Positions 5,436-54,511 are shown, counted from the first letter of the stretch. The stretch is 64,000 nucleotides of DNA from Gammaproteobacteria bacterium (GCA_021773835.1 JAJFJQ010000062.1:207322-271321); one strand, 5' to 3'. Program-made: numbers and translations. The notes: a model not told the origin generated them from the letters alone.

Positions 5436-5436
5436 G

Positions 5437-21924: not shown

Positions 21925-22358
21925 GAAGGCGAGGTAACGAGTGGAGTGAGCGAGAACGGTCGGAACTGGCTAGTCGACCAATTGCCGTACGAAGGTACAC
22001 AGCTATAAGGATCGCTAACTCGATACGATTCCGCGCGGAAACGCTAGTTTCCAACCCATTCGACCGGAGCAAGTCATTCGTTCGTCAACGACGCCGTCAA
22101 TTTACGGGGCCGCGCTTACGAACAATTCGTTGAAAAGCTTTTAGAGATTTCCACGAATACTCGGTTCCAACGCTGCAATAGTTGGCAGCTTCAGTGCATT
22201 AGCCACTGTTCCATCATCGCTGACATAGCGCTTGCAATCCTTACCATGTAGGTTATTATTACATTGATATATATCTGCGTGTATTTGAAGATATTAACAT
22301 TTAAGTTTAATTGAGCTGTCCGACAGGGGTGAAGCCTGGGCGGAGACGGAGCGATGCG

Positions 22359-22703
22359 ATGCCGAGTCGAGTAGTTGTAGCGAAAGAACTGGCCGAAATC
22401 TTTAAAATTTTGGCGCATCCGGACAGGATCCGATTGATCGAGGAAATGAAGGATGGAGAAAAGGACGTCAACACGCTTGCCGAATTACTCGATCTGCCCG
22501 GTCCGCGGGTATCGCAGCATTTGGCCTTGATGCGCGCGCACCGCATCATTGAAGAAGAACGTGACGGACGCCATCGCCGATATCACCTCGTGCAGCCGGA
22601 AATCGCGCAATGGATCATTGACGGAATGGCATTTCTGGAAAATCGTTCTCATGTGATACCGAAATCGAAGATCAATGCAGCGCGGAGATTATGGGCTTCT
22701 TAG
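22359..22703 (+). CDS. ArsR/SmtB-family transcriptional regulator
   Basis: HTH region ELAEIFKILAHPDRIRLIEEM...VSQHLALMRAHRII. The tracked ORF begins at 22311. Confidence 0.75.
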   Translation: MPSRVVVAKELAEIFKILAHPDRIRLIEEMKDGEKDVNTLAELLDLPGPRVSQHLALMRAHRIIEEERDGRHRRYHLVQPEIAQWIIDGMAFLENRSHVIPKSKINAARRLWAS

Positions 22704-22762
22704 ATAGCCAAAGTTTTTGTACGACATCAAAGTTTATTTAGCAATATTTTCTGGAGTCAGAA

Positions 22763-23416
22763 ATGCCGAATTTTGCAACCGGGGTAATCCGCTTCCAACG
22801 GGACGTTTTCCCTGCAAGGCGGGAAATGTTTGAAAAATTGAGCCAGGGCCAATCGCCGGAGGCTTTGTTTATTACCTGCTCGGATTCACGGATTGAACCC
22901 GCGATGATCACGCAGACCGATCCGGGCGAGCTGTTTATCTGCCGTAATGCCGGCAATATCATACCGCCGCACACAACGGCGACCGGCGCAATGACGGCAT
23001 CGATCGAATTCGCGGCCGCTGTATTACAGGTACCGCACATCGTGATCTGCGGGCACACGGAATGCGGCGCCATGAAAGGTGCGATGGATCCGGGATCGCT
23101 GGACGGGTTACCGCATGTTAAAGAATGGCTCGGATTCTCCAAGGCCGCAGTCGACATCGTAAACGACCTTGGTGCCGAATCGGACGAGCCCGGTCGCATG
23201 CGCATGCTGTTGGAGCAGAACGTAGTACTACAGTTGCAACATTTGAAAACTCATCCGACGGTAGCATTGCGCCTTGCAAAACACGATGTACAGCTCCATG
23301 GCTGGGTCTATGACATTGCGTCCGGGGACGTGCACGCCTACGACGAACCGTCGGAAAAATTTGTGCCGGTCGCCGAACGTTATGCCGAGGCGATCAAATT
23401 GAGCCAGAGCGTTTAA
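22763..23416 (+). CDS. Beta-class carbonic anhydrase
   Basis: CSDSRIEP and HTECGAM zinc-ligand motifs. Confidence 0.9.
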   Translation: MPNFATGVIRFQRDVFPARREMFEKLSQGQSPEALFITCSDSRIEPAMITQTDPGELFICRNAGNIIPPHTTATGAMTASIEFAAAVLQVPHIVICGHTECGAMKGAMDPGSLDGLPHVKEWLGFSKAAVDIVNDLGAESDEPGRMRMLLEQNVVLQLQHLKTHPTVALRLAKHDVQLHGWVYDIASGDVHAYDEPSEKFVPVAERYAEAIKLSQSV

Positions 23417-23450
23417 TCATCCCGGGAAACCCGACGAACGAGGCCAAGCA

Positions 23451-33109: not shown

Positions 33110-35086
33110 TTATCCGGCTTTGCGATCTCCGGCCCGCACTTCGCGTAATTGGTTGCGCCGCGTCTGGGTAGCCGCATCGTCCAGCGTGCCGTCGGCGTCA
33201 CAAACGACACCGTAAATCATGTCCGCGGCATGGGCAGAAACACGCTGCCGATGGATGTCGTGCACGACTTCGTGTGGGTCGCGCAGTAACGGATCGCCAT
33301 AGCCGCCGCCCCCCTGCCAATGGGTGTAGTACACGTCGCCCGGATCAAGGTCTGTTTCAGCATGTGAAGGCAGCTCATCATGTTGCCCGACAATATCCTG
33401 CAGATTGCGCGGGATCCGGCCCGCGGCGAACTGCTGGTGCACATCGGTGGCGCGCACCAGTACGTCGTAGCTGTTGTTTGCGGGATATCCGCCGCACAAA
33501 CCGTGGGCCAGCGGCAGCGCTTTCCCTGGCGAGGAAACGACCAGGTGCACGCGACCGGCGGGCGAGTCATGTGGAATAAAGCAGCTCGAAGCACCAAGTC
33601 CGCCACGAAAGCGCCCAGGACCACCAGAATCCACCTCCTCACGCCGCCAGAGGTAAAGCATCGGAAAACTGAATTCGTTGATTTCTACATCCGCGATGCG
33701 GCCCATCGGAATGCAACTCTGGCCTCCGGTATCAACTCCATCGCGATCTGTGCGGGCGCCGAGGCCGCCGGACATGGAGTCGCACAGCATGGTTACGAAT
33801 GGTCCGCCGCGCTGATCCACACCTGCCAGTACGGTCAGATCCCAAGTCCCTTCGCAAACCGACATTGCGCCACGGCAATGCTGCGGATGCGTGACCAGCA
33901 TACTGGCGATAGTTTCCGACACTGCATTTTGCGTCGCCCAGGCCGAAGCAACGGAGGCTTTGCCGACGCCCGCCGGGAAAGTGCAATTGTTGATCGTACC
34001 CTGCTCGCTGATGATATTCAGGCAACGGTATATGCCGCCGGGGACCCAGGGAATGTCGTTACACAGCATGGTCAATACGATCGGCATAATGCCGCCACGC
34101 AAACCGGCGAAGGTGCAGTTAATAAAGCCCTCGACCTGCTTGTCAGTACCGGTGAAGTCGAACGTAAGGCTGTCGCCCTGTTTACTCATCTGAAGCACGA
34201 TCTTGTAGATACCGTCATCCCCGGCGCGCGCGCCGTCCTGGTGGGCCACCGCCCCCCAGGTGCCGTTCGGCAGGCTGCTCAGTTTTGCGCGGAGACGCTT
34301 TTCAGCATCCGCCATCATGCGTTTCATGACCGCCTTGACCGTGTCGGGGCCATATTTCCCGATTAACTGGTCAAGACGCTCCTGTGCAACGTTATTGGCG
34401 CCAAGCTTGGCGCGCAGATCGAGCGCGATAAGCTTCGGGACACGGGAACGACGCAGGTACATGTCCTCGATGTCCGGACGTAGCTCTCCGCCCTCTATGA
34501 TCTTGACGGGCGGTACCGGCGTCGATTCCCAAAATACGTCGCGCCCGGATACCGACCAGCTGCCGGGCGATACGCCGCCAAGGTCAACCTGATGGCACAC
34601 CGCGCCGGTCCACGCGAACAGCTTACCGTCGTGGAACAGCGGTGCGAACAAGCTCACGTCGTTTTGATGCAGTCCGCCACCAACCCAGGGGTCGTTGCAC
34701 AAAAACATATCGCCGGGCTTGATCCCGGGGCGTTCGCAGCGGTGCTCCAGAGTCCACTTAATCGCCATGTCGAGCGATGCAGCGAGTTGCGTGTTGTAAA
34801 CCCCGACCAGCACGAGATCGCCGGTTTCGTCGGCAATCGCCGCGCTGAAGTCATTGCAGTCGGTAACCACAACGGAGCCGGACATGCGCTTCAGGGCGTC
34901 ACCCATATCTTCGGTGATGGCCGCGAGGCGGTGCCGGATGACTTCGAACGTCAACGGGTCGACCGCTTCAATGGCGCGTTCGTCAATTGTATGGATCGCC
35001 AGGTTCGACGCAGCGGCAAGCAGTTCCGCCGGACTGCGTTGGACGAAATTAAAGCGTTCGGAGCCGGAAACGTGGGTGATCGTCAT
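33110..35086 (-). CDS. Hydantoinase B / oxoprolinase-family subunit (acetone-carboxylase alpha-like)
   Basis: 658 aa with DPLTFEVIRHRLAAITEDMGDALKRMSGSVVVTDCNDFSAAI. A 4 nt overlap with the upstream hydantoinase A gene. Confidence 0.88.
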   Translation of the reverse strand: MTITHVSGSERFNFVQRSPAELLAAASNLAIHTIDERAIEAVDPLTFEVIRHRLAAITEDMGDALKRMSGSVVVTDCNDFSAAIADETGDLVLVGVYNTQLAASLDMAIKWTLEHRCERPGIKPGDMFLCNDPWVGGGLHQNDVSLFAPLFHDGKLFAWTGAVCHQVDLGGVSPGSWSVSGRDVFWESTPVPPVKIIEGGELRPDIEDMYLRRSRVPKLIALDLRAKLGANNVAQERLDQLIGKYGPDTVKAVMKRMMADAEKRLRAKLSSLPNGTWGAVAHQDGARAGDDGIYKIVLQMSKQGDSLTFDFTGTDKQVEGFINCTFAGLRGGIMPIVLTMLCNDIPWVPGGIYRCLNIISEQGTINNCTFPAGVGKASVASAWATQNAVSETIASMLVTHPQHCRGAMSVCEGTWDLTVLAGVDQRGGPFVTMLCDSMSGGLGARTDRDGVDTGGQSCIPMGRIADVEINEFSFPMLYLWRREEVDSGGPGRFRGGLGASSCFIPHDSPAGRVHLVVSSPGKALPLAHGLCGGYPANNSYDVLVRATDVHQQFAAGRIPRNLQDIVGQHDELPSHAETDLDPGDVYYTHWQGGGGYGDPLLRDPHEVVHDIHRQRVSAHAADMIYGVVCDADGTLDDAATQTRRNQLREVRAGDRKAG

Positions 35087-37212
35087 GCCAGTTTCTCCTT
35101 CTCGCTTCCGTTAACGGTCGCGACGTAAGTAATTCTGAGATTACCGAGTTCGTCGACCCGTGCATCGCAACCGAACGGTATGGCAACGGTGGTCGTCGGC
35201 GCCTCAACCACGGCTGGTCCTTTCAGGGTATCGCCCGGTCCGAGATCGAGATAATCGTAAATCGCAGTGCGTTCAAATCCACGCCGTATATCCAGGAATA
35301 CGTCGCGACTACCCCGAGCTTGCGCGCTTGCAGGCTTGCGTTCTGCGTGCGGCAATTCCGGCCGTATCGGCAGGCGGCCGCGGACCCGCATGCGATATGT
35401 GATCAACTGCATGCCCGCATCCCGATAGCCGGCATCCTTACCATACAGCTCCGCATACAGTGCTTCGAACGATTGTCCGATGGAGTCGACCTTCTCGGCG
35501 TCCAGTTCCCCGGCTGGAACCGGGGTCGTTACCTCGGCCAGCTGCATGGTGTAGCGAACGTCGACCTCGCGCTCGTAGGTCACGTCCGTAAAACTTAATC
35601 CCTGCTCGTCAAGGTAAGCGCTAAGTTCCCGCTCCAGGTCGCTGAAAATGTCCTGTAGCTGTTGCGGATCCGGTGGAAAATTTTCAGGTTGCGAGCGTTC
35701 GCGGGTCAGGACGATGTCTGAGCTGGCAAGACCGTACGCCGAGAACACAGCCGCAGTTGACCCGAGCGGAACCAGTACTTCGATGACGCCAAGATCGGCC
35801 GCATAGCTTGCGCAATGCATGGGGCCTGCGCCACCGAACGCATAGAGAACGAAATCGCGCGGATCGCGGCCGCTGTTTACAACCACCTTGCGTACCAAGT
35901 CAGCAGCCTGTGCATTCTGGATTGCGTAGATGGCTGCAGCCGCATCGCTAACGCTCATGCCGAGCGGGTCAGCGATATGTTTTTTGATCGATGCTTTCGC
36001 ACTCGCGACGGATAGTGGTTTTTTGCCGCCCAGGAAGTAATCCGGATTAATGATGCCGAGCACCAGGTCCGCGTCGGTCAATGTGGGGCGCTCACCGCCC
36101 TCGTCATAGCAAGCCGGACCAGGGTGCGCGCCGGCGCTATCCGGACCGACGCGCAGGTTGCCACCCTGGTCAAGCCACGCGATCGCGCCACCGCCAGCTC
36201 CAATGGTATGCACGTCGACCATGGAACTCGAAATCAGATACTGATTGATGACCACTGTATTGGTCGAGACAGGCTTGCCGTCCACCAACAAGCCAACCAG
36301 AAATGTTGTGCCGCCGATATCGGTCGAGATTACGTTGTCATGGTTAAGGATTCGGCCCAGATTCGCGCAACCGACGAGGCCGCCGGTAAGCACCGAACCA
36401 AGCGTTGTGACGGCATGACGAGGTGCCTCGCGAGCGCGAACGCAGCCGCCAGAACCTTGCATCACAAGTAGCGAGCCGTCAAAGCCACGCCCACGCAACT
36501 CGTCTTCCAGCGGGTACAAGTAGCCACGGAGGATAGGCGCGACCTGGGTATTAACTATCGTGGTGGCGCTGCGCGGAAATTCACGAATGCGCGGACTGAC
36601 ATCTGAAGATAGTGCGACGTAGAGGTCGGGCGCTATTTCACCAATAATGTCGCGGACTCGATGTTCGTGCGCCGGATTGCTGAACGACCAGAGAAAAGAC
36701 ACCGCTAGCGCTTCGACGCCTTTATCGATCAGCCGCCGGGTCGCCTGGCGAACGCCGCCCTCATCAAGACACACAATTTCCGCCCCTTTGTAGTCGATCC
36801 GCTCGTTGATTTCCTCGATCAATTGACGCGGCACCAGGGCTGGCGGTTTGCTGGTGTTGGCCATGTTCTGGATTTCTTCTGCATCCAGGCCAGCATAGCG
36901 TCCCTCAACATTCATAATCGAAATAGAATCGGCGTGCCCCTGAGTGGTCATGAATCCGACTTTGGACACATTGCCCGTGACCAGTGCGTTAAGCGTGGAA
37001 GTTGTACCGTGCACGATATAGTCCGTATTGCCGAGCAACTCTGGCGTGCTGATCCCGACTACTGCGGCCAGTTCGTCGACGACATTCAGGAACCCGAGCG
37101 AAAAATCGTGCGGTGTAGACGGTGATTTTGCTGCGAACAGGATGCCCGCTTCATCGGCCAGGAAACCATCCGTAAAGGTACCCCCGGTATCGATACCCAT
37201 AACATATGCCAT
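35083..37212 (-). CDS. Hydantoinase A / oxoprolinase-family subunit (acetone-carboxylase beta-like)
   Basis: 709 aa with the N-terminus MAYVMGIDTGGTFTDGF and ASKHA-fold ATP-binding motifs. Confidence 0.88.
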   Translation of the reverse strand: MAYVMGIDTGGTFTDGFLADEAGILFAAKSPSTPHDFSLGFLNVVDELAAVVGISTPELLGNTDYIVHGTTSTLNALVTGNVSKVGFMTTQGHADSISIMNVEGRYAGLDAEEIQNMANTSKPPALVPRQLIEEINERIDYKGAEIVCLDEGGVRQATRRLIDKGVEALAVSFLWSFSNPAHEHRVRDIIGEIAPDLYVALSSDVSPRIREFPRSATTIVNTQVAPILRGYLYPLEDELRGRGFDGSLLVMQGSGGCVRAREAPRHAVTTLGSVLTGGLVGCANLGRILNHDNVISTDIGGTTFLVGLLVDGKPVSTNTVVINQYLISSSMVDVHTIGAGGGAIAWLDQGGNLRVGPDSAGAHPGPACYDEGGERPTLTDADLVLGIINPDYFLGGKKPLSVASAKASIKKHIADPLGMSVSDAAAAIYAIQNAQAADLVRKVVVNSGRDPRDFVLYAFGGAGPMHCASYAADLGVIEVLVPLGSTAAVFSAYGLASSDIVLTRERSQPENFPPDPQQLQDIFSDLERELSAYLDEQGLSFTDVTYEREVDVRYTMQLAEVTTPVPAGELDAEKVDSIGQSFEALYAELYGKDAGYRDAGMQLITYRMRVRGRLPIRPELPHAERKPASAQARGSRDVFLDIRRGFERTAIYDYLDLGPGDTLKGPAVVEAPTTTVAIPFGCDARVDELGNLRITYVATVNGSEKEKLA

Positions 37213-43445: not shown

Positions 43446-44306
43446 ACGGACATCTTAAAGTCAATAGGTTGATGCCGCCGGCATCAAGATAGTGACTCTA
43501 GAATTCGTAGATGGGAGGAGTACCCGCCGGCGCGCCGGGCCCACGAGCATTGGCCTAGGGCCAATGCAACGTGTTTGTGTCTACGACACGCTGCAGTCGC
43601 CGACGTTGAGCGAAGGTCCGCGTCACTACACAAGCGAAGCGCAGTAGTGACGCGGACGAAATCGGTGCCTTGGGCCTTGCCCGCTGGGCCGATTCCTGAA
43701 CTGTGCACGAATGCCCCGCGAATTACGGTGGGAACCCCGCACGTCGGTGACTTGATTTATCCGGATGCCAGCTTCGCGCCCGTCTAGACTCATCCGGCGT
43801 GAACGATTTTATCCGTGGCCACTACGGCAAAGTGGCAACCAAGGCATCGTCGGACCGTGTAACCGATGCATCGGCGCAAGCCGCGGTCCATCTTCAAGCA
43901 AATGACAAACCAATCGGAGCGTCCATCCTCGCCGGCAGTTGCCAGCGATTCAATCATCGAGCGTCCGTTTAGCGAATGTTGCTTAGTGCTCATTTTTTTT
44001 AATGCAGTTAGCCGCTGCAATCTTAAAAGGAGGTGTTTAACCATTGTCGAAACTCACCCGGAAACGGGATCGTTGGATTGCGCGAGAACTTCTTCAACAG
44101 AGGAAAGCTCGCGTTGCCTGTAACCAGGCGCTTTTAGGTTGACTGGGACTGGTGCCCCATGACTGCTCCGCTGTAGCGGTCTTGCCAGCTTCGGCTGTCA
44201 GGAAAGTCGGAAACACTTACCGAAAATCGGAAGCACTGTGAGAAGCCTGAACTACCAACTGAAAATGCTGTGTCGGCATTCCCGCGAAGGGAGTTATGCG
44301 ACGCAG

Positions 44307-45101
44307 ATGAATCGCGAACGCATGCTGACTTTGATCGCGAATGAATTGCACGAGCTCGGATATCGCAAGATGAGCGAGCGTTCCTTGAAACCGAAACATA
44401 TCGATGCGTTAGTGAAGCATTGGTTTGATCAGCGCTTGTCGATCGGAACCATTAAGAACCGCATGGCCGTGATCCGCTGGTGGGCGCACAAGGCCGATAA
44501 GCAGAATGTCGTTGCACGTAGCAACGATCACTATGGGATCTCGGATCGACGATTCATTGCCGATGAATCGAAGGCTAAGTCGGTTACCGAATCGCAATTG
44601 GAAAAGATCGTAGATGCGCACGTCCGCATGAGCCTCGAACTTCAGCAAGCTTTCGGATTGCGTCGAGAAGAGGCGATGAAGATTCAACCGAGCTTCGCCG
44701 ACCGCGGTGACCACATCGTTCTGAAACCAAGTTGGACGAAAGGCGGTAAGGATCGTGCGATCCCGATCCGGACAGAAGCGCAGCGAGACGTGCTCGATCG
44801 TGCGCGGCAACTCGCCGGTCTTGGCTCGTTAATACCGAGCAATCGAAATTATGTCCAGCAGATGCGGATCTACGAGCGCGACACCGTGCGCGCTGGTCTG
44901 TCGAATATGCATGGACTACGGCACGCCTACGCACAGAATCGATACGAAGAATTAACTGGTTGGAAATGCCCCGCGGCCGGCGGCCCGGCAAAGGCATCGC
45001 TGATGTTTGAGCAACGGGTAGTCGATAGAGAGATGCGGCTAACGATCAGCCGTGAATTGGGCCATGAGCGCGAGCAAATCACGGCAGCCTATTGCGGGTA
45101 G
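44307..45101 (+). CDS. Tyrosine recombinase-family protein (second recombinase of the island)
   Basis: C-terminal HGLRHAYAQNRY...GHEREQITAAY motif (His-x-x-Arg ... Tyr). Start chosen at MNRERML with AAGGGAG upstream. The tracked ORF begins at 44238. Confidence 0.6.
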   Translation: MNRERMLTLIANELHELGYRKMSERSLKPKHIDALVKHWFDQRLSIGTIKNRMAVIRWWAHKADKQNVVARSNDHYGISDRRFIADESKAKSVTESQLEKIVDAHVRMSLELQQAFGLRREEAMKIQPSFADRGDHIVLKPSWTKGGKDRAIPIRTEAQRDVLDRARQLAGLGSLIPSNRNYVQQMRIYERDTVRAGLSNMHGLRHAYAQNRYEELTGWKCPAAGGPAKASLMFEQRVVDREMRLTISRELGHEREQITAAYCG

Positions 45102-45227
45102 CGATATCGTTCGTGAAGCGGACACACGCAGCCTGAAAAAACTACGCACTTCGTTGAATTGAATTACTGCAGCGGATCCGGTGCGTCCCTCGTAAGCTCC
45201 CGTTAAGCACACTTAACCAACCTGCGA

Positions 45228-45644
45228 ATGGCCGAAACCATACTGTTAACGATACCTGAAGTCGCAGAACATTTACGCGTCTCAGCCCGGACTGTTCACC
45301 GGCTTATCGCTGCGAAATCGTTACCGGTTTGCAAGGTTGGTCGCTCTGTTCGAATCAGAAGAGTCGACCTCGAGCGTTTTCTGGACCCCGAATCCACGAC
45401 GCCTGATAATAAGACCTGCACGGGGCCGGGTGTGCGTAACCGAGAGGAAAACGTATGCCATACCGTCGCAAAGACAGTACCGTTTGGTGGGCGTCTTACG
45501 TCGATGCAAGCGGACAAAGAGTTAGACGAACTACTGGAACAACGGACCATAAGGAGGCAAAAGCGCTCGAAGCCAAATGGAAGCTTGAAGCGTTCCGAAC
45601 AGGGCAGTGGGGCGAAGAGCCGAGCCGAACGTTCGCGGAGTTGA
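45228..45644 (+). CDS. AlpA-family (MerR-like HTH) excisionase/regulator
   Basis: MAETILLTIPEVAEHLRVSARTVHRLIAAKSLPVCKVGRSVRIRRVDLERFL. The tracked ORF runs on to 45644 and overlaps the integrase start out of frame, so the functional end is uncertain. Confidence 0.6.
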   Translation: MAETILLTIPEVAEHLRVSARTVHRLIAAKSLPVCKVGRSVRIRRVDLERFLDPESTTPDNKTCTGPGVRNREENVCHTVAKTVPFGGRLTSMQADKELDELLEQRTIRRQKRSKPNGSLKRSEQGSGAKSRAERSRS

Positions 45645-46543
45645 TGGTGCCTTATCTAAAGGCGACAGCAACTAAGAAACGCAGTCATGAACGCGATCGA
45701 TACCTAGTCGCGAGATTGCGCGAATTTTTCGGTGAGCATGATCTTCGGTCTTTAAGTCCCCGAGACGTTCGAGCCTATATTGAGCATCGCCAAAGCAAGC
45801 ACGTAGGGCCGGCGACTATAAATCGGGAACTGGGCCTCTTATCCGCGGCACTCAATTGGGCAAAGCGGGACCTGGAGTGGCAGTTACCGAACCCAATAAT
45901 GGGTCGTCTGCTGCAGCCGCCGGAAGGACGGCTACGTTGGCTAAGTCGGCAGGAAGCAGACCGATTGATCGCGGCGGCGCGTAAGCAAAGCCGAGCGAAA
46001 TATTTGGTCGACTTTCTTGAACTGGCTTTGCACACGGGCATGCGCCGGGGCGAGATGCTCAACCTGGAGTGGCAGCGGGTCGATCTTGATGAGGGGCTGG
46101 TCTACTTACGCGGGGCGAATCAGAAGAACGGCAAGTTTGGGAGCGTGCCATTGAACGCAACCGCGAAAGCCGCTTTGGTACGTCGCGATGCGTTCAGACG
46201 GGAAAACTGTCCCTCGTCGTCCTGGGTGTTCGCGCACAAGGACGGCGAACGCGTTGCATCTGTGAAATGCTCGTTCGCAACTGCGTGCGCCACGGCCGGG
46301 ATCGAGGATTTTCGGATCCACGATTTACGCCATTGTTGTGCCGCGTGGCTGGTGCAGGCGGGTGTTTCAATCCGGGCTGTCGCCGAGCTGCTGAGGCACT
46401 CGGATATCCGCGTCACGATGCGCTACGCCCATTTGGCACCGGAAACTGTGCGCGCCGCGGTCTCAGTCTTGGATGCTGAGTCACGATTTGGTCACGGTGC
46501 AGACTTGGATAAACGCGAAAAGGAGGTTAACGCGTTGATTTAA
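45455..46543 (+). CDS. int: Site-specific tyrosine integrase (phage/P4-like)
   Basis: 362 aa with an arm-binding-like N-terminus and HDLRHCCAAWLVQAGVSIRAVAELLRHSDIRVTMRYAHL catalytic box. Its stop lies 1 nt before the tRNA-Val 3' end. Confidence 0.9.
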   Translation: MPYRRKDSTVWWASYVDASGQRVRRTTGTTDHKEAKALEAKWKLEAFRTGQWGEEPSRTFAELMVPYLKATATKKRSHERDRYLVARLREFFGEHDLRSLSPRDVRAYIEHRQSKHVGPATINRELGLLSAALNWAKRDLEWQLPNPIMGRLLQPPEGRLRWLSRQEADRLIAAARKQSRAKYLVDFLELALHTGMRRGEMLNLEWQRVDLDEGLVYLRGANQKNGKFGSVPLNATAKAALVRRDAFRRENCPSSSWVFAHKDGERVASVKCSFATACATAGIEDFRIHDLRHCCAAWLVQAGVSIRAVAELLRHSDIRVTMRYAHLAPETVRAAVSVLDAESRFGHGADLDKREKEVNALI

Positions 46544-46544
46544 T

Positions 46545-46619
46545 TGGTGGGCGATACTGGGATCGAACCAGTGACCCCTGCCGTGTGAAGGCAGTGCTCT
46601 CCCGCTGAGCTAATCGCCC
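46545..46619 (-). tRNA. tRNA-Val (anticodon CAC)
   Basis: The reverse complement GGGCGATTAGCTCAGCGGGAGAGCACTGCCTTCACACGGCAGGGGTCACTGGTTCGATCCCAGTATCGCCCACCA folds as a cloverleaf, with CCA encoded. Confidence 0.85.
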
Positions 46620-46807
46620 CGAATTGGAGCCGGCATTCTAGGTTGGGCCTAGGGGGCGGTCAAATTCATCTAGTGCCGAGCTCCGCGCGGCCGCTGCGCC
46701 CTAAACGCTCAATAATTGTGAATTATTACCGAAATAATTATTGAACCAGTTCTCAGCCACGGGTACTCACCAGGTATAGTTACAATAGTGTGACGGGGAG
46801 CACAGAC

Positions 46808-47386
46808 ATGACTAATTTTACCAGGGCGTTGGTCTTAAGCATCGCCTTATCGTTACCGGTTGCTGCCAATGCAGCGATGTGGGAATTCGCCGGCTTTATG
46901 GATGACGACCAAGCAATGACGTCAACCGTGCCTGATCCATACTTCGGCGGCGGCTTCGTTAGCGCGTTGCTGGATACGGATACGGGTGTCCTTGAATGGT
47001 TCATCTCGTTCGGCGGGCTTACCTCGGACGAGACCGTCTCCCATTTTCATTTGGCACCACCCGGTGCGGGGGGCGGAGTCGTGCAAACGCTTGTTAGTGA
47101 GAGCGTTAGGGCCGGTAGCCCGACGGCCGGTTCCTATGTCGGCTCGGCCATCCTGGATGCGGGCAAGATCGCCTCTCTTACGACGAACTCACTTACCGAC
47201 ATGGAAGAACACATCGTAGGGGACGTGACGGACTGGTACGTCAATATCCATACGGAAAATTGGACGGGCGGGGAAATTCGTGGTCAGCTTATTGTAAGCG
47301 GTATAACTGTTGTCCCGTTGCCTGCTGCTGTGTGGTTGTTCCTACCTGCGATTGCCATGTTGGCGAGGGTGGGACGAAGACAGTAA
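46808..47386 (+). CDS. CHRD-domain secreted protein with VPLPA-type C-terminal sorting tail (PEP-CTERM variant)
   Basis: Signal peptide MTNFTRALVLSIALSLPVAANA. CHRD-like VNIHTENWTGGEIRGQL. C-terminus VPLPAAVWLFLPAIAMLARVGRRQ (motif, TM helix, basic tail). Confidence 0.6.
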   Translation: MTNFTRALVLSIALSLPVAANAAMWEFAGFMDDDQAMTSTVPDPYFGGGFVSALLDTDTGVLEWFISFGGLTSDETVSHFHLAPPGAGGGVVQTLVSESVRAGSPTAGSYVGSAILDAGKIASLTTNSLTDMEEHIVGDVTDWYVNIHTENWTGGEIRGQLIVSGITVVPLPAAVWLFLPAIAMLARVGRRQ

Positions 47387-47503
47387 GCAGCTCGATACCG
47401 TAGAACAAAAAATCTCGCTTATAGCGGGATTTTTTTTGTTTCGAGCATTAAACAGCAGTGGAATTGCCTATAATTCGCCCTCGTTCAAACACAGCAGCAC
47501 GCC

Positions 47504-48913
47504 ATGTCCGTCGTTACCCGTTTCCCACCCAGCCCTACCGGCTACCTACACGTCGGTAGTGTACGCACCGCCTTATTTAATTGGCTTTACGCGCGCAAAG
47601 TGGGTGGTAAGTTTATCCTACGCATCGAAGACACCGACCGCGCGCGTTCAAGCCAGGAGGCGGTGGATATTATTTTTGCGGGCATGGAATGGCTTGGCCT
47701 CGACTACGACGAAGGGCCGTATTTTCAGACGCAACGCTTCGATCGCTATGGCGAAGTGATTGAGCAATTACTCGCGCAAGATAAGGCCTACCATTGTTAC
47801 TGTTCAAAAGACCGCCTCGAAACACTGCGCGCAGAGCAAATGGCGCAAAAACTGAAGCCGCGCTATGACGGTCGATGTCGAGATCGAATAGGTGCGCCGC
47901 CTCAGGGTATTGCGCCGGTTGTTCGCTTGAAGACGCCGCGAGAAGGTGCGGTAGCGATCGAGGATAAAGTGCACGGCTATATAACGACCAGCAATTTAGA
48001 ACTCGACGACCTTGTAATTTCGCGTTCCGACGGTACGCCAACCTACCATCTGACGGTTGTCGTCGACGATATCGACATGGGCGTTACCCATATCATCCGC
48101 GGCGACGATCACATTAACAACACACCGCGCCAAGTTCACATCATCGAAGCACTTGATGCGCCGCGTCCGCTTTATGCGCATGTACCGATGATCAATGGCG
48201 CGGACGGTAAAAAATTGTCGAAACGCCATGGCGCCGTGAGCGTGCTCGAATTTCGCGAACAGGGATTCCTACCCGATGCGCTCACGAACTATTTAGCTCG
48301 CCTCGGCTGGGCACATGGCGATCAAGAAATATTCACCCGCGCTGAACTCATCAACGCGTTTGATTTCGATGGCTTAAACAAATCAGCCGCAACCTTCGAT
48401 TGGGACAAGCTCTTATGGCTGAACCAACAGTACATACAAAACGCTGAACCGGCAGCGCTGCTGGCATTGGCCGCACCATACCTCGAGAGTGCGCAGCTGC
48501 AGCTCGACAAAGGCCCGGATATCGCCGCGGCGGTTGAAGCGCAGCGCACTAGAGCGAAGACCTTGGTCGAGATTGCCGAGCAAAGCCATATGTTCTACGG
48601 TGAATTCATACGCGATGAAGCCGCCGCCAAGAAACATCTGCGGCCGGTTATCGGGCCCGCTTTAAAGGCGATCCAAGGAAAGTTCGCCGCCGTTGAGACG
48701 TGGCATGGAACAGAGCTTAAAGACATCGTTGAGCAGACGGCGGCAGAATTCGATATGAAGATGGGCAAAGTTGCGCAGCCCCTGCGCGTCGCTGTGACGG
48801 GGTCGTCTGCGTCGCCTTCGATCGACACCACGCTCGAACTGATTGGCCGTGAACGTTGCTTGGAGCGTCTCGATGCAGCACTTATTTACATCGCTGAGCG
48901 TGCGGTTGCTTGA
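47504..48913 (+). CDS. gltX: Glutamyl-tRNA synthetase
   Basis: 469 aa with HVGSVRTALFNWLYARK (HIGH region) and KLSKRHG (KMSKS). Confidence 0.95.
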   Translation: MSVVTRFPPSPTGYLHVGSVRTALFNWLYARKVGGKFILRIEDTDRARSSQEAVDIIFAGMEWLGLDYDEGPYFQTQRFDRYGEVIEQLLAQDKAYHCYCSKDRLETLRAEQMAQKLKPRYDGRCRDRIGAPPQGIAPVVRLKTPREGAVAIEDKVHGYITTSNLELDDLVISRSDGTPTYHLTVVVDDIDMGVTHIIRGDDHINNTPRQVHIIEALDAPRPLYAHVPMINGADGKKLSKRHGAVSVLEFREQGFLPDALTNYLARLGWAHGDQEIFTRAELINAFDFDGLNKSAATFDWDKLLWLNQQYIQNAEPAALLALAAPYLESAQLQLDKGPDIAAAVEAQRTRAKTLVEIAEQSHMFYGEFIRDEAAAKKHLRPVIGPALKAIQGKFAAVETWHGTELKDIVEQTAAEFDMKMGKVAQPLRVAVTGSSASPSIDTTLELIGRERCLERLDAALIYIAERAVA

Positions 48914-49038: not shown

Positions 49039-49114
49039 GGGGCCATAGCTCAGCTGGGAGAGCGCCGCAATGGCATTGCGGAGGTCGGCGGTTCGATCCC
49101 GCCTGGCTCCACCA
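49039..49114 (+). tRNA. tRNA-Ala (anticodon GGC)
   Basis: GGGGCCATAGCTCAGCTGGGAGAGCGCCGCAATGGCATTGCGGAGGTCGGCGGTTCGATCCCGCCTGGCTCCACCA. A G3:U70 wobble pair is present. Confidence 0.85.
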
Positions 49115-49319
49115 TTCTTTATTCCCGTCGTATCGGATACTTACCTTATCCGTCATCCTTCAATCGCCGCGGCGCCCATTTTGCGTGCGGAGGGCCTTAT
49201 ACTCACAGCCACAAGGCAGCGTGATATTTTAATCTTAAAACAAATCTATTTTAATGTTAAAGTAATTTCCACGAGGATTAAGACCGGAGCGCCGCGGTCC
49301 GTTGGTGAGGAGGAAACAT

Positions 49320-52073
49320 ATGTCAGCTCGTCCTGAAACACCCGTCAAAAATAAGAAAAAAGTCCCCACTTATTGCTACCAATGTGTCAACGGTCCTGAT
49401 CTGCTTACCGTAGAAGTCGTCGACGGCATCGCGACACAGGTTGAGCCCAATTTCGCTGCCAATAAAGACCATCCGGCCGAAGGCAAGGTTTGTGTTAAGC
49501 CGTACGGCCTGGTGCAGAAGGTGTACAACCCGCATCGCATTCTTACGCCAATGAGACGCACTAACCCCAAAAAAGGCCGGCACGAAGATCCGGGTTGGGT
49601 TGAGACTACTTGGGACGAGGCGCTCGATTTGATCGCGGAAAAGATGAAGGCGACTCGGGAAAAGGGTCTCCTCGACGAGAACGGTGATCCGCGATTCGCT
49701 TTTACGACCGGCGGCGCAGCCACACCCTTTTATTACGCCGGCACGCTCAGTGCGTTTCTCGGGGCCTGGGGACCGTACGACAACAGTCTCGGCGCCGGTG
49801 GTACGGTGAAGTGCTATCACAGTGAACACATGTACGGCGAACTCTGGCACAAGGCCTTCACCGTGATGCCGGATACGCCACGCGCCCAATACGTTATTTC
49901 ATTCGGCAACAATATCGACGCCTCCGGCGGCGTGACCGCTGTGTACCGCCAAGCGAATGCGCGGGCGCGGGGATGGACGCGGATCCAATTCGAACCACAT
50001 CTATCGGTGACCGGCGCTAAGGCAACGGAATGGGTGCCAATCAAGACCAAGACCGATGGCGCCGTGCTGTATGCGATGCTCCACGTGTTGTTGCATGAGC
50101 ACTCGGCCGATGAACTCGATATCAACTTCCTCAAACACACGACCTCTTCACCTTATTTGGTAGCTCCAAACGGCTATTACCTGCGCGATCCGGAAACCAA
50201 GAAACCGCTGATATGGGATCTGCAGATCAATGGACCGGTGCCGTTCGATACGCCAAACACCGATCCAGCGATTGAAGGAAGCTTCGTCGTCCCGCACGCG
50301 ATCGAGGTCGGTGCGGACGACGAGACGTGGACGCATACGGATACGTCAGTCACGACCGCACACGAAAAACTTAAAGCGCACGTTCGCGAAAACACGCCAG
50401 AGTGGGCGGCTGAGATCTCCGACGTACCAGCGGATACTCTGCGGCGCATCGCCAATGAGTTTCTGGGCGCCGCCTGTATCGGCGAAACACATGAGGTCGA
50501 AGGGCGCGTGCTGCCGTTTCGGCCGGTCACGGTTGTCCTAGGTAAGTCGGTGAACAACGGTTGGGGCGCCTACGAATGCGTATGGGCACGCACCGTGATG
50601 CAGGTGCTTGTCGGTGCACTCGAAGTGCCGGGCGGAATGCTCGGTAGCACGACGATCATATCCGGACCCGACTGGGATCGCATGGCCAACGTCTTTCCGG
50701 GCGAAGACGGGTTTATGCATTTTCCATTCAACCCAACCGATAAAGAAAATTGGTTGCAAGCGAATGAAATGCGGCACGCTCATAAGCTGTTAACACCGAT
50801 GGTCGGGGATTCGATGTTCTCCGGCTTGTTCGGATCGACTTCGATTGCCTGGTTGCGTCTGCAAGGCCGCGCGGCCGAGTCGTGGGCGAAACCGCAGCCA
50901 CCGGATGTGTGGTTCGTCTATAAATGCAATCCATCGATATCGTTTTCGGAGACCTCACGTCTCGGTGAGTCGATGGCGCAATTTCCCTTTATGGTCTCGT
51001 TCGCCTATACCGAGGATGAAACCAACCATTTCGCAGACCTGATGCTGCCCGAGGCGATCGACCTCGAGTCGACGCAATTGATCCGCGTCGGTGGGCAACA
51101 CTATTTTGAGCAGCAATGGGAAGCCGAGGGTTGGGTGCTGCGGCAGAAAGTGGTTGAACCACAGGGCGAAGCCAGAGATTTCTCTTGGATTTGTAATGAA
51201 CTCGCACGCAGGGTTGGCATCCTCGAGGCCTACAACGACATGATCAATGTGGGTGCCTGCGGTATACCGTTGAAAACCGATAGTTACGATTACTCGCTCG
51301 ATCCAACGACGGTACACGAACCGGATGTAATTTGGGACGCTGTGTGTAAGGCGGCGAGTGCGGATCTGACCGATGGCAAGGAGGTCAACGATCTCGAATG
51401 GTTCCAAGAAAAGGGTTACAAGGTTCGGCCGTTTTCAAGCATCAATTGGTACCTGTATCCGAAGTTGGTCGATCAGGGCCTGCGCTTCGAATTGCCTTAC
51501 CAAGAACGGATCCTGCGAGTTGGCCAACAACTTGCCAACCGCTTACACGAAAACGGCGTCGATTGGTGGGACACGCAGCTTGAAGAATACGAAGCGTTAC
51601 CGACGTGGAAGGATCTGAACAAACTGTGGGACAACATCATCGAGAAAAATTACGATGTGAAGGCCACTGATTTCCCGTTCTGGCTATTGAGCGCTCGTAG
51701 CATGCAATACGCCTGGGGCGGCAACACCAGCTTACAATTTATTCACGAGGTGGCGAGCAACGTCGCCGGGCACGATGGCATTTTGATCAACGCGAATAAG
51801 GCCGCGGAGTTGGGGATCGGGGAGGGCGACTGGATGGAAGTCAGCTCACCAGTCGGCAAGGCCCATGGTCAGGCACGCTTGCGCCAGGGCATTCGCGAAG
51901 ACGTGATCGTTATGATTGGCCAGTTCGGCCATTGGAAGATGCCATTCGCGAAGGACCTTAAGGTGCCGAGTTTAAACGCGCTCGTTCCCATGCACCCGGA
52001 TTTCCTCGATGGCCATGGTTCGAGCATTGATGCGACAAAAGCTGCGGTTAAAAAAGTGGAGAAGCTAGTATGA
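49320..52073 (+). CDS. Molybdopterin-dependent oxidoreductase catalytic subunit (Mo-bisPGD/DMSO-reductase superfamily) without Tat signal
   Basis: ATG at 49320 lies 7 nt after GAGGAGG. 917 aa. N-terminus CYQCVNGPD...(33)...CVKPYG. RILTPMRRTNPKKG...WDEALD is typical of the family. No RRxFLK. Confidence 0.8.
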   Translation: MSARPETPVKNKKKVPTYCYQCVNGPDLLTVEVVDGIATQVEPNFAANKDHPAEGKVCVKPYGLVQKVYNPHRILTPMRRTNPKKGRHEDPGWVETTWDEALDLIAEKMKATREKGLLDENGDPRFAFTTGGAATPFYYAGTLSAFLGAWGPYDNSLGAGGTVKCYHSEHMYGELWHKAFTVMPDTPRAQYVISFGNNIDASGGVTAVYRQANARARGWTRIQFEPHLSVTGAKATEWVPIKTKTDGAVLYAMLHVLLHEHSADELDINFLKHTTSSPYLVAPNGYYLRDPETKKPLIWDLQINGPVPFDTPNTDPAIEGSFVVPHAIEVGADDETWTHTDTSVTTAHEKLKAHVRENTPEWAAEISDVPADTLRRIANEFLGAACIGETHEVEGRVLPFRPVTVVLGKSVNNGWGAYECVWARTVMQVLVGALEVPGGMLGSTTIISGPDWDRMANVFPGEDGFMHFPFNPTDKENWLQANEMRHAHKLLTPMVGDSMFSGLFGSTSIAWLRLQGRAAESWAKPQPPDVWFVYKCNPSISFSETSRLGESMAQFPFMVSFAYTEDETNHFADLMLPEAIDLESTQLIRVGGQHYFEQQWEAEGWVLRQKVVEPQGEARDFSWICNELARRVGILEAYNDMINVGACGIPLKTDSYDYSLDPTTVHEPDVIWDAVCKAASADLTDGKEVNDLEWFQEKGYKVRPFSSINWYLYPKLVDQGLRFELPYQERILRVGQQLANRLHENGVDWWDTQLEEYEALPTWKDLNKLWDNIIEKNYDVKATDFPFWLLSARSMQYAWGGNTSLQFIHEVASNVAGHDGILINANKAAELGIGEGDWMEVSSPVGKAHGQARLRQGIREDVIVMIGQFGHWKMPFAKDLKVPSLNALVPMHPDFLDGHGSSIDATKAAVKKVEKLV

Positions 52074-52717
52074 CGCGCTATGTAATGACGGCCGACCTAA
52101 ACCGTTGCGTCGGCTGCCAAACCTGCACTGCGGCGTGCAAGCATACCAACGCAACGCCGCCTGAGATCCAATGGCGTAAGGTCTTGGACGTCGAGATGGG
52201 TGAATTCCCCGATGTCGAACGTATCTTTATGCCGGTCGGTTGCCAACATTGCGCCGATCCACCATGCATGCATGTGTGTCCAAGTCAGGCCACCGCGCAG
52301 CGCGACGACGGTATTGTTACCATCGACTACGACCTTTGCATCGGCTGCGGTTACTGCATGGTGGCATGTCCGTATGACGCGCGTTACAAAGTCGACGAGG
52401 CGCGATTTGCCTACGGTAAAAAACCAAGTCTGACAGAGGCCTTGCGGCATGATGAAGGTCGCCTCGGCGTTGCGCAGAAATGTACGTTTTGCGCCGACAG
52501 GATCGATGAGGGCACGGCGAAGGGTTTAACTCCAGGAGTAGATCCCGAGGCGACGCCAGCGTGCGTCAACTCTTGCATCGCCAACGCACTGCAATTCGGT
52601 GATATAGAAGACGAGAACAGCAACGTATCGGAATTGTTGGCCGAGAATACCTATTTTCAAATGCACGAAGAACTCGGTACCGAAACCGGATTTTACTACT
52701 TATGGAATGAAAAGTGA
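52070..52717 (+). CDS. Four-cluster [4Fe-4S] ferredoxin-type electron-transfer subunit (DmsB/PsrB/SoeB-like)
   Basis: Four Cys clusters (CVGCQTCTAAC, CQHCADPPC, CIGCGYCMVAC, CTFCADR). ATGA overlap with the catalytic gene. Confidence 0.88.
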   Translation: MTRYVMTADLNRCVGCQTCTAACKHTNATPPEIQWRKVLDVEMGEFPDVERIFMPVGCQHCADPPCMHVCPSQATAQRDDGIVTIDYDLCIGCGYCMVACPYDARYKVDEARFAYGKKPSLTEALRHDEGRLGVAQKCTFCADRIDEGTAKGLTPGVDPEATPACVNSCIANALQFGDIEDENSNVSELLAENTYFQMHEELGTETGFYYLWNEK

Positions 52718-53592
52718 CGATAAGCTTCGGATCGAAATTACAGACAAACTGGGACTGGCGCGCGGCGTTCAATTTTATGTTCGGCGGAAGCGGTAGCGCG
52801 CTGTTGCTCATGATGGCAATATTCGCCGCGCCGCAGGCCGCACCGTTGGCCTTGGCGCTAGTGGCGCTCGTATTGGTTGGGTTTGGTCTGTTGATGGTGT
52901 GGCTAGAGATTGGCCGACCGTGGCGTTTCTTGCATGTCTTTTTTCATCCGCAGACATCGTGGATGACCCGAGAGGGCTCGGTCGGAACGGTGCTGTTCCC
53001 GGTAACAATCGCCGGGGCGCTAATGCATTCCGTGATGCTGCTGGCGTTTGCTGCAGTCCTCGGCTTCGTCTTCCTCTATTGCCAAGCCCGTATATTGAAA
53101 GCGGCGGCCGGCATACCGGCGTGGCGTGAACCGGCCATTGTTCCGCTGATCATCTCAACCGGTTTGGTCGAAGGGACCGCTATCGCGATGATGTTTTTCC
53201 AAGGAATGAATTCAGCAGCACTGTGGATGCCCGGATTATTCACCCTATTTATCGCTGCGAGGCTATGGATGTGGTTTGCCTACCGCGACGCGTTAGCGCG
53301 CGGCAAGGCGCCGGCAGGGACATTGCAGGCGCTAACGAAAATGCACCGCGAATTCATCATCGCCGGCTGCATTGTGCCGTTGCTGTGCGTATTAATGACC
53401 TTCGCATTCGAACTCGGGAGTTGGGGCACCTTCCTTGGCGGCGCGGTTGCGCTCATATCCGGTTGGCGCTTGAAATATGCCATTGTCGTCAAAGCGTCCT
53501 TCAAGCAAGGCTACGGGATCGGGAAGCTCAGAAAAGGGCGGCCAATCATAAAACCGCCGGTACGCAGAGCAGGCGATCCGATCCAACTTTAA
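52714..53592 (+). CDS. Integral membrane anchor subunit (NrfD/DmsC-type)
   Basis: 292 aa, polytopic and hydrophobic. Start overlaps the FeS gene stop (GTGA). Confidence 0.7.
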   Translation: MTISFGSKLQTNWDWRAAFNFMFGGSGSALLLMMAIFAAPQAAPLALALVALVLVGFGLLMVWLEIGRPWRFLHVFFHPQTSWMTREGSVGTVLFPVTIAGALMHSVMLLAFAAVLGFVFLYCQARILKAAAGIPAWREPAIVPLIISTGLVEGTAIAMMFFQGMNSAALWMPGLFTLFIAARLWMWFAYRDALARGKAPAGTLQALTKMHREFIIAGCIVPLLCVLMTFAFELGSWGTFLGGAVALISGWRLKYAIVVKASFKQGYGIGKLRKGRPIIKPPVRRAGDPIQL

Positions 53593-53833
53593 CGACTAGA
53601 ATCGTGTGTGAATCGAGCCACGATTTGCGGCTGCGCTCGTGCAGGTCCACGCGTACTAGTGGACAACCCCAAAAACCGTTAGAATGCGCCACTCGGTTTT
53701 GCCAACGCAATCGCATCTCATTGATTTACAAACAGATGTTCAGCGGCAATAGCGCGGACCTGCACGGCTCTAAAACGTGTAGATCGACCAAACGTCGGGC
53801 TCGTAAAACCAGCCCACTGTTATTGGACAACAT

Positions 53834-53909
53834 GTCCCCATCGTCTAGAGGCCTAGGACACTGCCCTTTCACGGCGGCAACAGGGGTTCGAATCCCCTTG
53901 GGGACGCCA
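53834..53909 (+). tRNA. tRNA-Glu (anticodon TTC)
   Basis: GTCCCCATCGTCTAGAGGCCTAGGACACTGCCCTTTCACGGCGGCAACAGGGGTTCGAATCCCCTTGGGGACGCCA. Confidence 0.9.
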
Positions 53910-53916
53910 AAAAAAT

Positions 53917-53946
53917 AAACCCGCCTTATGGCGGGTTTAATTTTTT
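53917..53946 (+). terminator. Rho-independent terminator of tRNA-Glu
   Basis: CCCGCC-TTAT-GGCGGG hairpin followed by TTTAATTTTTT. Confidence 0.75.
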
Positions 53947-54400
53947 GTGTCCCCAAGGATTGATTCTCACCCCCCTGGTTCGACAGATTGCGCAAAGCAA
54001 TCTGGACGCACGCAGTGCGCCCCGCAGGGGTGAGCAAACAAGCCTTTGTTTGCGAATCTATCTCCGCGATCTGTCTAGCACGATCCCACACACTGGCGGG
54101 TTTAATTTTTTGTGTCCCCAAGGATTGATTCTCACCCCCCTGGTTCGACAGATTGCGCAAAGCAATCTGGACGCACGCAGTGCGCCCCGCAGGGGTGAGC
54201 AAACAAACCTTTGTTTGCGAATCTATCCCCGCGATCTGTCTAGCACGATCCCACACACTGGCGGGTTTAATTTTTTGTGTCCCCAAGGATTGATTCTCAC
54301 CCCTCTGGTTCGACAGATTGCGCAAAGCAATCTGGACGCACGCAGTGCGCCCCGCAGGGGAGAGCAAACAAGCCTTTGTTTGCGAATCTATCCCCGCGAT
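53929..54400 (+). repeat. Three tandem copies of a ~165 bp structured repeat
   Basis: Unit boundaries at 53929, 54094 and 54259 (period 165). Copies differ by 1-4 substitutions. The third copy decays after ~54395. Confidence 0.85.
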
Positions 54401-54511
54401 CGATTTGTCACCGAGGTGCTTCAATTGGGGGGGTATTCTATGAGCCCCTAATAAGTAAATATCCCAAAAACGTTTCCGCGGAAACGTTTTCATTAGACTC
54501 AGCAGAAAAAT

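Follow-up and report, generated by a model that had tools for sequence, protein, structure and literature searches.

A three-gene operon in a 64,000-nucleotide stretch of DNA from a Gammaproteobacteria bacterium (GCA_021773835.1 JAJFJQ010000062.1:207322-271321; the whole stretch is called the window below) probably encodes a member of the PadBCD family, a membrane-bound enzyme of the phenylacetyl-coenzyme A (CoA):acceptor oxidoreductase (EC 1.17.5.1) type containing molybdenum bis(pyranopterin guanine dinucleotide) (Mo-bisPGD) and iron–sulfur (Fe–S) clusters. The assignment is drawn from sequence: family membership, cofactor motifs, the absence of export signals and the gene contexts of relatives. 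An earlier note on this DNA had favoured a sulfite-oxidizing complex like SoeABC, an identity that does not survive the comparisons below. The three translationally coupled genes occupy 49320-53592 (+ strand), and none of the products has a twin-arginine translocation (Tat) signal or other export signal that would place A or B outside the cytoplasm:

49320-52073, + strand: A, catalytic Mo-bisPGD subunit, PadB-like (917 aa, 102.6 kDa, no Tat signal)
52070-52717, + strand: B, electron-transfer subunit, PadC-like (215 aa, 23.9 kDa, no signal peptide)
52714-53592, + strand: C, NrfD/PsrC-type membrane anchor, PadD-like (292 aa, 31.9 kDa, isoelectric point 10.7)

The length of 917 aa proposed for A, counted from an ATG with a Shine–Dalgarno sequence, is supported by GAGGAGGA at 49307-49314. 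The frame of A is open for just 6 codons upstream of this ATG, as far as a TTG at 49302, and the 18 residues before the first cysteine (residue 19) are hydrophilic (MSARPETPVKNKKKVPTY). A Tat signal on A is therefore impossible, and the chance that one was missed through a wrong start can be dismissed. Inspection of start sites and N-termini left no possible Tat or Sec signal on either A or B.

Genes A and B overlap by an ATGA (52070-52073) and genes B and C by a GTGA (52714-52717). B contains 16 cysteines in four ferredoxin-type groups, corresponding to 4x[4Fe–4S] motifs, and is recognized by Pfam as a 4Fe-4S dicluster protein. C scores barely over the cut-off for Pfam NrfD (26.3 vs 25.8 bits), and a profile built from 23 C subunits matches PsrC, of Thermus polysulfide reductase (2vpw_C, E = 2.4e-4). 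On all of these points, including the NrfD/DmsC type of the anchor, the earlier note was right. C has about eight transmembrane helices and a strongly basic C-terminal tail. A hand-made eight-helix model places 22 lysine and arginine residues on the membrane side where both termini lie and 0 opposite, and by the positive-inside rule both termini of C would be cytoplasmic. This orientation agrees with the absence of export signals on A and B. Together they point to the three-subunit, cytoplasm-facing architecture already put forward, in which an inverted NrfD-type anchor is predicted to hold A and B at its cytoplasmic face.

Relationship to PadBCD and SoeABC

In a protein-database search with A, 2803 of the candidates scored are homologues at E <= 0.001. 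Relatives were also sought by an exhaustive HMMER search against 1.84 billion representatives of 50 %-identity clusters (P-numbers below). The best 50 % representative is also 917 aa long and is 57 % identical to A. Its 90 % cluster consists of Thauera proteins, one of them from T. aminoaromatica, for which the Joint Genome Institute (JGI) name is phenylacetyl-CoA:acceptor oxidoreductase. Dozens of relatives at 60-83 % identity bear this name, as do all JGI-named homologues, and it recurs in the clusters of representatives at 44 % and 40 % identity; one member of the former cluster is named 'PadB' in NCBI. Relatives of A in Aromatoleum and Azoarcus are 66-67 % identical. In an NCBIfam scan of A no equivalog came near its cut-off (the best, PhsA, scored 177 vs 694 bits); NCBIfam contains no PadB or SoeA model. 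A tblastn search of plasmids found no PadB-like gene.

The relationship extends to the whole operon. In comparison with an operon of Thauera sp., A, B and C are 56 % (1072 bits), 63 % and 42 % identical, with lengths of 917, 215 and 292 aa against 917, 215 and 301 aa, and B is 73 % identical to its counterpart in Rhodoferax. The window operon thus has the three homologous subunits of PadBCD in the same order and of similar size, a cytoplasmic membrane-bound Mo–Fe–S architecture and the same motif for FS0, the N-terminal Fe–S cluster of the catalytic subunit.

A cytoplasmic sulfite:quinone oxidoreductase of the SoeABC type would share the ABC order and the lack of a Tat signal, and would likewise have an NrfD-type anchor, expected to be inverted (PMC8076601). 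Cytoplasmic orientation is common to SoeABC and PadBCD and so does not discriminate between them. As a reference for SoeABC, an operon on a plasmid of Azospirillum brasilense was used, found by tblastn at 26 % identity and encoding proteins of 998, 251 and 314 aa. It is followed directly by xsc (sulfoacetaldehyde acetyltransferase), has a gene for an enoyl-CoA hydratase/phosphate acetyltransferase fusion about 7 kb upstream, and its A subunit has relatives at 70-73 % identity with the JGI name 'sulfite dehydrogenase (quinone) subunit SoeA'. To these proteins window A is 25 % identical (133 bits), B 34 %, and C about 26 % over 85 aa, a marginal match (E = 0.03). The published criterion for calling SoeABC is >30 % identity over >50 % coverage, together with operon structure (PMC6382920), and A falls short of it. 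More than 150 other 50 %-identity clusters outscore the 133 bits of the SoeA-type protein. Among the 150 best representatives no SoeA is apparent (20 source names were looked up), and none is longer than 931 aa except one 1309-aa sequence without a CxxC motif.

The catalytic subunits also differ in kind. The SoeA-type protein of Azospirillum, likewise without Tat signal, has the canonical C-x2-C-x3-C...C motif (CYMCACRC...CAKG), and all 120 of its relatives listed carry PF04879, at lengths of about 950-1000 aa; A has neither this domain nor a four-cysteine FS0 motif. The sulfur-oxidation or sulfonate genes that the earlier note proposed as a check are missing too: there is no dsr, sox, apr/sat, xsc or tau gene in the 64-kb window, and none of that kind in the 30 or so neighbour families that are best conserved across 79 related loci. 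With 133 bits to the SoeA-type protein and 1072 bits to the PadB-named Thauera protein, A clusters away from SoeA, the very outcome that the note had set down as contrary to its own proposal, and sulfite oxidation is a highly improbable function for the operon.

The 79 related loci (L-numbers below; the window operon is W) were taken from species-representative genomes, their neighbouring proteins were clustered and the conserved ones annotated, and a neighbour-joining tree was built from the A subunits. In a clade at 54-56 % identity, whose members include Rhodoferax and Polaromonas, the gene for an FlK-type hotdog thioesterase precedes A, B and C, which are followed first by the gene for a PaaK-type phenylacetate-CoA ligase (583 bits) and then by those for 4-hydroxybenzoyl-CoA reductase (alpha subunit 1322 bits vs a cut-off of 995, beta subunit 498 vs 405). 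Genes for Por/PadG/PadI-like subunits of a 2-oxoacid:ferredoxin oxidoreductase, a benzoate-CoA ligase and an ABC transporter are also nearby. This is the set expected for anaerobic degradation of (4-hydroxy)phenylacetate to benzoyl-CoA, and it matches the published Pad pathway, in which the ligase PadJ, alpha-oxidation to phenylglyoxylate by PadBCD, and PadEFGHI act (PMC5109826, PMC4453571, PMC9765128).

The Thauera operon has FdhD/XdhC/MobA-like maturation genes on one side and a divergently transcribed PaaX regulator on the other. PaaX is the family of phenylacetyl-CoA-responsive repressors. In this locus (L081) a gene of the FdhD/NarQ family (9168-9986) lies directly 5' of the PadB-like gene, with XdhC-like and MobA-like genes farther 5'. 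In formate dehydrogenases the Mo=S ligand is put in place by the sulfurtransferase FdhD. Since such a gene adjoins the Thauera PadB-like gene, PadB-type enzymes may, by analogy, need a sulfido-Mo cofactor; no fdhD-type gene adjoins the window operon.

Elsewhere the neighbours vary. In gammaproteobacterial metagenome-assembled genomes (MAGs) at 66-69 % identity they comprise an acyl-CoA ligase, an acyl-CoA dehydrogenase and a B12-dependent acyl-CoA mutase accompanied by MeaB, together with a RidA-family protein, a pyridoxal-phosphate enzyme of the Cys/Met type, hydantoinase B and TonB receptors. The Aromatoleum operon is flanked by genes for hydantoinase A/B, a thiolase and a FadB-like protein; in another clade the neighbours are IorAB-like genes plus a regulator of the AraC type, and in the L027 clade a xanthine dehydrogenase (XDH)-family enzyme with XdhC. 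This last enzyme was considered as a 4-hydroxybenzoyl-CoA reductase and rejected, as it is just 35 % identical to the genuine HcrA of L060. The common denominator of these contexts is CoA-ester catabolism, which fits a cytoplasmic oxidation of the alpha-carbon of an acyl-CoA with transfer of electrons to quinone.

Several points weigh against the assignment to the PadBCD family. The link to the purified PadB rests on KEGG-derived source names and gene context. PaaX is encoded at the Thauera locus, but no padE-J gene lies within 10 kb. No functional partner is conserved in the clade of the window operon (W, L001, L002 and L006, with L003 and L005 at a greater distance). The association with a phenylacetate pathway that is found in the 54-56 % clade and in Thauera does not extend to the 64-kb window, which contains no pad, paa or bcr genes and, near the operon, no paaK/padJ, padEFGHI/ior, thioesterase, PaaX or benzoyl-CoA-pathway gene. 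Because contexts differ from one clade to the next, the enzymes have probably diversified in substrate specificity. As the window operon is an orphan between tRNA-Ala and tRNA-Glu, the earlier note's remark that the substrate cannot be read from the sequence holds for the whole 64-kb window.

These points lend some weight to the idea that the operon encodes a paralogue within the PadBCD family, with the same electron path to quinone, whose substrate is not an arylacetyl-CoA and would be either an aliphatic or amino-acid-derived acyl-CoA or a compound other than a CoA ester. The window clade has no aromatic-pathway partner, and sister clades at 66-69 % identity are tied to other genes (B12 mutase/MeaB; hydantoinase A/B, thiolase and FadB-like protein; XDH-family enzyme). 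Nevertheless, the operon is 54-57 % identical to clades with an explicit (4-hydroxy)phenylacetate context and arylacetyl-CoA stays the default substrate of the family, so that such a paralogue appears rather unlikely.

The direction of electron flow is not fixed by sequence alone, and the bSreA/SoeA lineage shows that cytoplasmic complex iron–sulfur molybdoenzymes (CISM) can run either way (PMC10100899). A cytoplasm-facing enzyme that reduces its substrate with electrons drawn from quinol, like the bacterial sulfur reductase SreABC, is nonetheless very unlikely here: the closest named relatives are all of the oxidizing PadB type, there is no respiratory-reductase context, and related clades have enzymes of CoA-ester catabolism next to the operon. 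An oxidizing enzyme of the PadBCD family is the reading followed below.

The catalytic subunit: FS0 motif, Mo ligand and proposed reaction

In Pfam, A matches Molybdopterin (PF00384) and Molydop_binding (PF01568), and Molybdop_Fe4S4 (PF04879) is absent from A and likewise from all relatives listed. The N-terminal motif of A reads C19-YQ-C22-VNG-P26-D27 ... C58-V-K60. The codons concerned are:

49374-49499, + strand: FS0 motif codons Cys19 (49374-76), Cys22 (49383-85) and Pro26 (49395-97)
49374-49499, + strand, continued: FS0 motif codons Asp27 (49398-400), Cys58 (49491-93) and Lys60 (49497-99)
49812-49814, + strand: codon of Cys165, the presumed Mo ligand

Among 104 relatives of at least 60 % identity, Cys19, Cys22, Gly25, Asp27, Cys58 and Lys60 are invariant and Pro26 is nearly so. 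The signature C-x2-C-x4-D...C-x-K, which was derived here from family alignments and not taken from the literature, is present in all homologues from the 79 loci and in the Thauera protein. Given 2803 homologues and motif residues that are invariant in 104 relatives, the pattern is not due to chance.

The earlier note had the third ligand cysteine of FS0 replaced by proline. The cysteine is indeed absent, but in the multiple alignment it is Asp27 that stands in the column of the third cysteine, with the x4 spacing of the nearest canonical relatives; Pro26 matches that cysteine only against proteins of the x3 type, such as ArrA. Among the full-length 50 %-cluster representatives of at least 37 % identity, this column holds aspartate in 6 of 8, histidine in 1 of 8 and cysteine in 1 of 8. 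The motif in these is G-P-D, with G-L-D in one and G-G-P-D in one Syntrophales group. The histidine form, G-P-H, belongs to a subclade carrying a Tat signal, and the cysteine, in P0129 (40 % identity), is the exception, placed exactly at the position of Asp27. Most representatives at 36 % identity or less keep a cysteine at x3 or x4; a few unrelated distant lineages have aspartate at x3, and a handful have neither cysteine nor aspartate at x3/x4. As judged from the alignments, the 'missing' cysteine is a conserved Cys-to-Asp change that defines a PadB-like superclade; it is a hallmark of the clade and not a degenerate or decaying site.

P0130, 39 % identical to A, has a clear Tat signal (RRRFIKAG) together with the motif C-x2-C-x2-G-P-H. 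P0130 and P0129 occupy a middle ground, with the canonical periplasmic enzymes on one side and the cytoplasmic, aspartate-type PadB clade on the other. Farther away, at about 30-33 % identity (the P0241 cluster; L079), the relatives are Tat-exported molybdoenzymes of 917 aa from Gordonibacter and Raoultibacter, genera known for catechol-dehydroxylating Mo enzymes.

Retention of three cysteines and Lys60 argues that a cluster is probably kept at FS0. Of the outcomes that the earlier note had listed for the missing ligand, the loss of the cluster therefore recedes, and a three-iron cluster or an alternative ligand stands: Asp27 could ligate the fourth iron, or the cluster could be [3Fe–4S]. There is precedent in some ferredoxins for aspartate as a ligand of cluster iron, arsenite oxidase AioA has a [3Fe–4S] cluster with the third cysteine replaced, and nitrate reductase NarG has histidine as the first FS0 ligand. 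We know of no Mo-bisPGD enzyme for which Cys3-Asp ligation of FS0 has been described.

In the Rhodoferax/Polaromonas loci L053-L066, and there alone, an additional cysteine lies in 'EPNFCAA', about 23 residues after the position of Cys22, and might provide these proteins with an alternative ligand for the cluster. As a general fourth ligand of FS0 this extra cysteine (PNFC) was rejected, since it is not conserved outside the group.

Cys165 is likely to be the Mo ligand. It is invariant in the 104 relatives and aligns with a cysteine in nearly all 50 %-cluster representatives; in HMMER pairwise alignments to ArrA and PsrA there is an offset of 4-6 residues at Cys165, and the known Mo-ligand cysteine is not matched.

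An AlphaFold2 model of A, based on the 104-sequence alignment, has a mean predicted local distance difference test score of 89.6 and a predicted template modelling (TM) score of 0.91. Its best fold match in the PDB is ArrA (6cz7; TM-score 0.66/0.74, 18 % identity), followed by PcrA, EbdA and PsrA. The family profile also matches ArrA 6cz7 first (E = 1.7e-41), with PsrA 2vpw next, and neither the sequence search nor the fold search of the PDB gave anything closer to A than ArrA.

The Thauera enzyme, as studied by Rhee and Fuchs in 1999, reportedly has subunits of about 93, 27 and 26 kDa and contains Mo and Fe–S; it is also said to be insensitive to oxygen, with ubiquinone as the likely acceptor. 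For the window enzyme we infer a scheme that covers substrate class, Mo ligand, FS0 ligation, quinone site and direction of electron flow. An acyl-CoA thioester, by default an arylacetyl-CoA such as phenylacetyl-CoA, would bind at the Mo centre, presumably ligated by Cys165. Its alpha-methylene group would be oxidised with oxygen derived from water, in two 2-electron steps, to the 2-oxoacyl-CoA, by analogy with the Thauera enzyme. Electrons would leave through FS0, whose motif is present and whose ligands may be Cys19, Cys22, Cys58 and probably Asp27, with Lys60 bridging to the pterin; they would continue through the four [4Fe–4S] clusters of B, for which the motifs are likewise present, to a putative site in C, close to the cytoplasmic face, where quinone would bind. 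Hydrolysis of the 2-oxoacyl-CoA to the 2-oxoacid would fall to the enzyme itself or to a separate thioesterase; no thioesterase gene adjoins the window operon.

A further proposal, doubtful as a whole, joins two elements. The PadB superclade would have exchanged the third FS0 cysteine for a functional aspartate (histidine in one subclade), giving a Cys3-Asp [4Fe–4S] cluster or one convertible between [3Fe–4S] and [4Fe–4S], and the orphan operon of the window would oxidise a CoA ester other than phenylacetyl-CoA.

Surroundings of the operon in the window

The operon lies in a compact block whose other elements, apart from gltX and a gene for a CHRD-domain protein upstream, are:

49039-49114, + strand: tRNA-Ala(GGC), immediately upstream of the operon (ARAGORN; Rfam tRNA, 62 bits)
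49115-49319, + strand: leader/promoter region of the operon, with the Shine–Dalgarno sequence GAGGAGGA at 49307-49314, 5' of the ATG of A
53834-53909, + strand: tRNA-Glu(TTC), downstream of the operon (ARAGORN; Rfam)
53916-53939, either strand: strong bidirectional hairpin resembling an intrinsic terminator, with a 10 bp stem and T-runs on both strands, closing the block

The order CHRD protein, gltX, tRNA-Ala, genes A, B and C, tRNA-Glu and terminator is kept in the closest genomes (L001, L083 and L084). GltX is 89 % identical in L083/L084, and the outer flanks of the block differ; on the upstream side of CHRD-gltX, which are conserved, the genes in L083/L084 are of other kinds and look mobile. 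The gene for the CHRD-domain protein (46790-47386) closely precedes gltX in the window (region 46790-48913) as well as in L083, and in another genome (P0386) GltX and CHRD are fused in a protein of 701 aa.

A search of the operon leader against Rfam gave no riboswitch or leader element, and a sigma-70 scan upstream of the operon gave no promoter on the + strand. In alignment with L001/L083/L084, the leader has about 36 extra nucleotides at 49283-49318 (AGACCGGAGCGCCGCGGTCCGTTGGTGAGGAGGAAA). These include a short inverted repeat rich in G and C (GACCG...CGGTC) as well as a second Shine–Dalgarno sequence, and the ancestral site, CAGGAGGAT, lies upstream of the insertion. Downstream of the operon, an open reading frame (ORF) of 255 aa on the - strand (53726-54493) overlaps tRNA-Glu and the terminator hairpin. 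It has no Pfam match, its sole match being a weak, crotonase-like one of 48 residues, and it is probably spurious or much shorter.

The rest of the window encodes ordinary metabolism, including subunits of the aconitase/isopropylmalate-isomerase type, EF-G, asparagine synthase, pyruvate carboxylase, an aldehyde dehydrogenase and a cupin; a cluster of ligase, hydratase, acyl-CoA dehydrogenase and short-chain dehydrogenase/reductase genes lies at 9-14 kb. A hydantoinase A/B pair (33110-37212) was considered as a partner of the operon, as hydantoinases adjoin the enzyme in Aromatoleum and some gammaproteobacterial loci. The pair is 27-38 % identical to the hydantoinases beside those relatives and lies 12 kb from the operon, behind integrases and tRNAs, and a functional link was dropped. 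Two integrase genes, at 44238-45101 (Phage_int_SAM_2/Integrase_1) and 45455-46543 (XerC/D-like tyrosine recombinase), abut tRNA-Val(CAC) (46545-46619, - strand), and the region 44238-46619 looks like the edge of an integrated element.

Towards the start of the window, a 1769-aa ORF (126-5435) without a Pfam domain (E <= 1e-4) is followed by a SapC-family gene (5398-6213). A row of genes at 22311-25097 encodes a regulator of the ArsR type, a beta-carbonic anhydrase and an anion transporter (SulP/STAS). This looks like a module for bicarbonate uptake rather than for sulfate metabolism.

Comparison with known systems

The window operon is a new member of a known family, to which the Asp-for-Cys signature of FS0 and the orphan, tRNA-flanked context add modestly. 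Its assignment replaces sulfite oxidation, a functional guess that was plausible but mistaken. Cytoplasm-facing Mo-bisPGD enzymes with an NrfD-type anchor belong to at least two unrelated families, SoeABC and PadBCD, which have to be kept apart when metagenomes are annotated for the cycling of sulfur and of aromatic carbon. The PadB family is large, with diverse acyl-CoA contexts and a conserved Cys-to-Asp change in FS0, and both features are open to experiment. A published phylogeny of the DMSO-reductase/MopB superfamily does not include PadB (PMC10100899), and a literature search found no paper naming both SoeA and PadB.

PadBCD of Thauera aromatica and Aromatoleum (EC 1.17.5.1) is the closest system. 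Its three genes follow the same order, a Tat signal is likewise missing and the anchor is NrfD-like; the Thauera A subunit has the same C-x2-C-x4-D...C-x-K motif, and B of the window has four 4-Cys groups. The locus differs from that of Thauera in having no PaaX, FdhD, XdhC or MobA genes, and from the Rhodoferax type in having no genes for the thioesterase, PaaK, 2-oxoacid oxidoreductase or Hcr. In contrast to these, the window operon stands alone between tRNA-Ala and tRNA-Glu beside gltX, and its clade is a separate one, made up of uncultured Gammaproteobacteria.

SoeABC of Allochromatium vinosum, Aquifex aeolicus and Ruegeria pomeroyi resembles the predicted complex in combining a cytoplasm-facing Mo-bisPGD subunit, a 4x[4Fe–4S] subunit and an NrfD-type anchor, and it is likewise quinone-reducing and without Tat signal (PMC8076601). 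SoeA-type subunits differ in being about 80 aa longer, in carrying PF04879 and in having the canonical four-cysteine FS0 motif. SoeABC is also found in a context of sulfonate or sulfur genes, such as xsc, which is absent at the window operon.

The polysulfide and thiosulfate reductases PsrABC/PhsABC and the arsenate reductase ArrAB provide the best PDB matches, and share with the window enzyme a PsrC-type anchor and a conserved cysteine in the Mo-ligand region. The termini of PsrC lie on the P-side (PMC8076601), opposite to the cytoplasmic location predicted for the termini of C. These enzymes differ further in being Tat-exported and periplasmic, in their four-cysteine FS0 and in a structural-alignment identity of 18-19 %. 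As a group, the periplasmic CISM reductases (Psr/Phs/Ttr/Arr/Dms) are marked by a Tat signal that A does not have, and A is far below the cut-offs of all NCBIfam equivalogs.

With regard to FS0 itself, the structures of AioA and NarG provide the nearest parallel. In these, as here, three cysteines are kept, one ligand position is swapped and the FS0 loop is otherwise conserved; unlike in AioA and NarG, the swapped position in the family described here is an invariant aspartate, or histidine in one Tat-bearing subclade.

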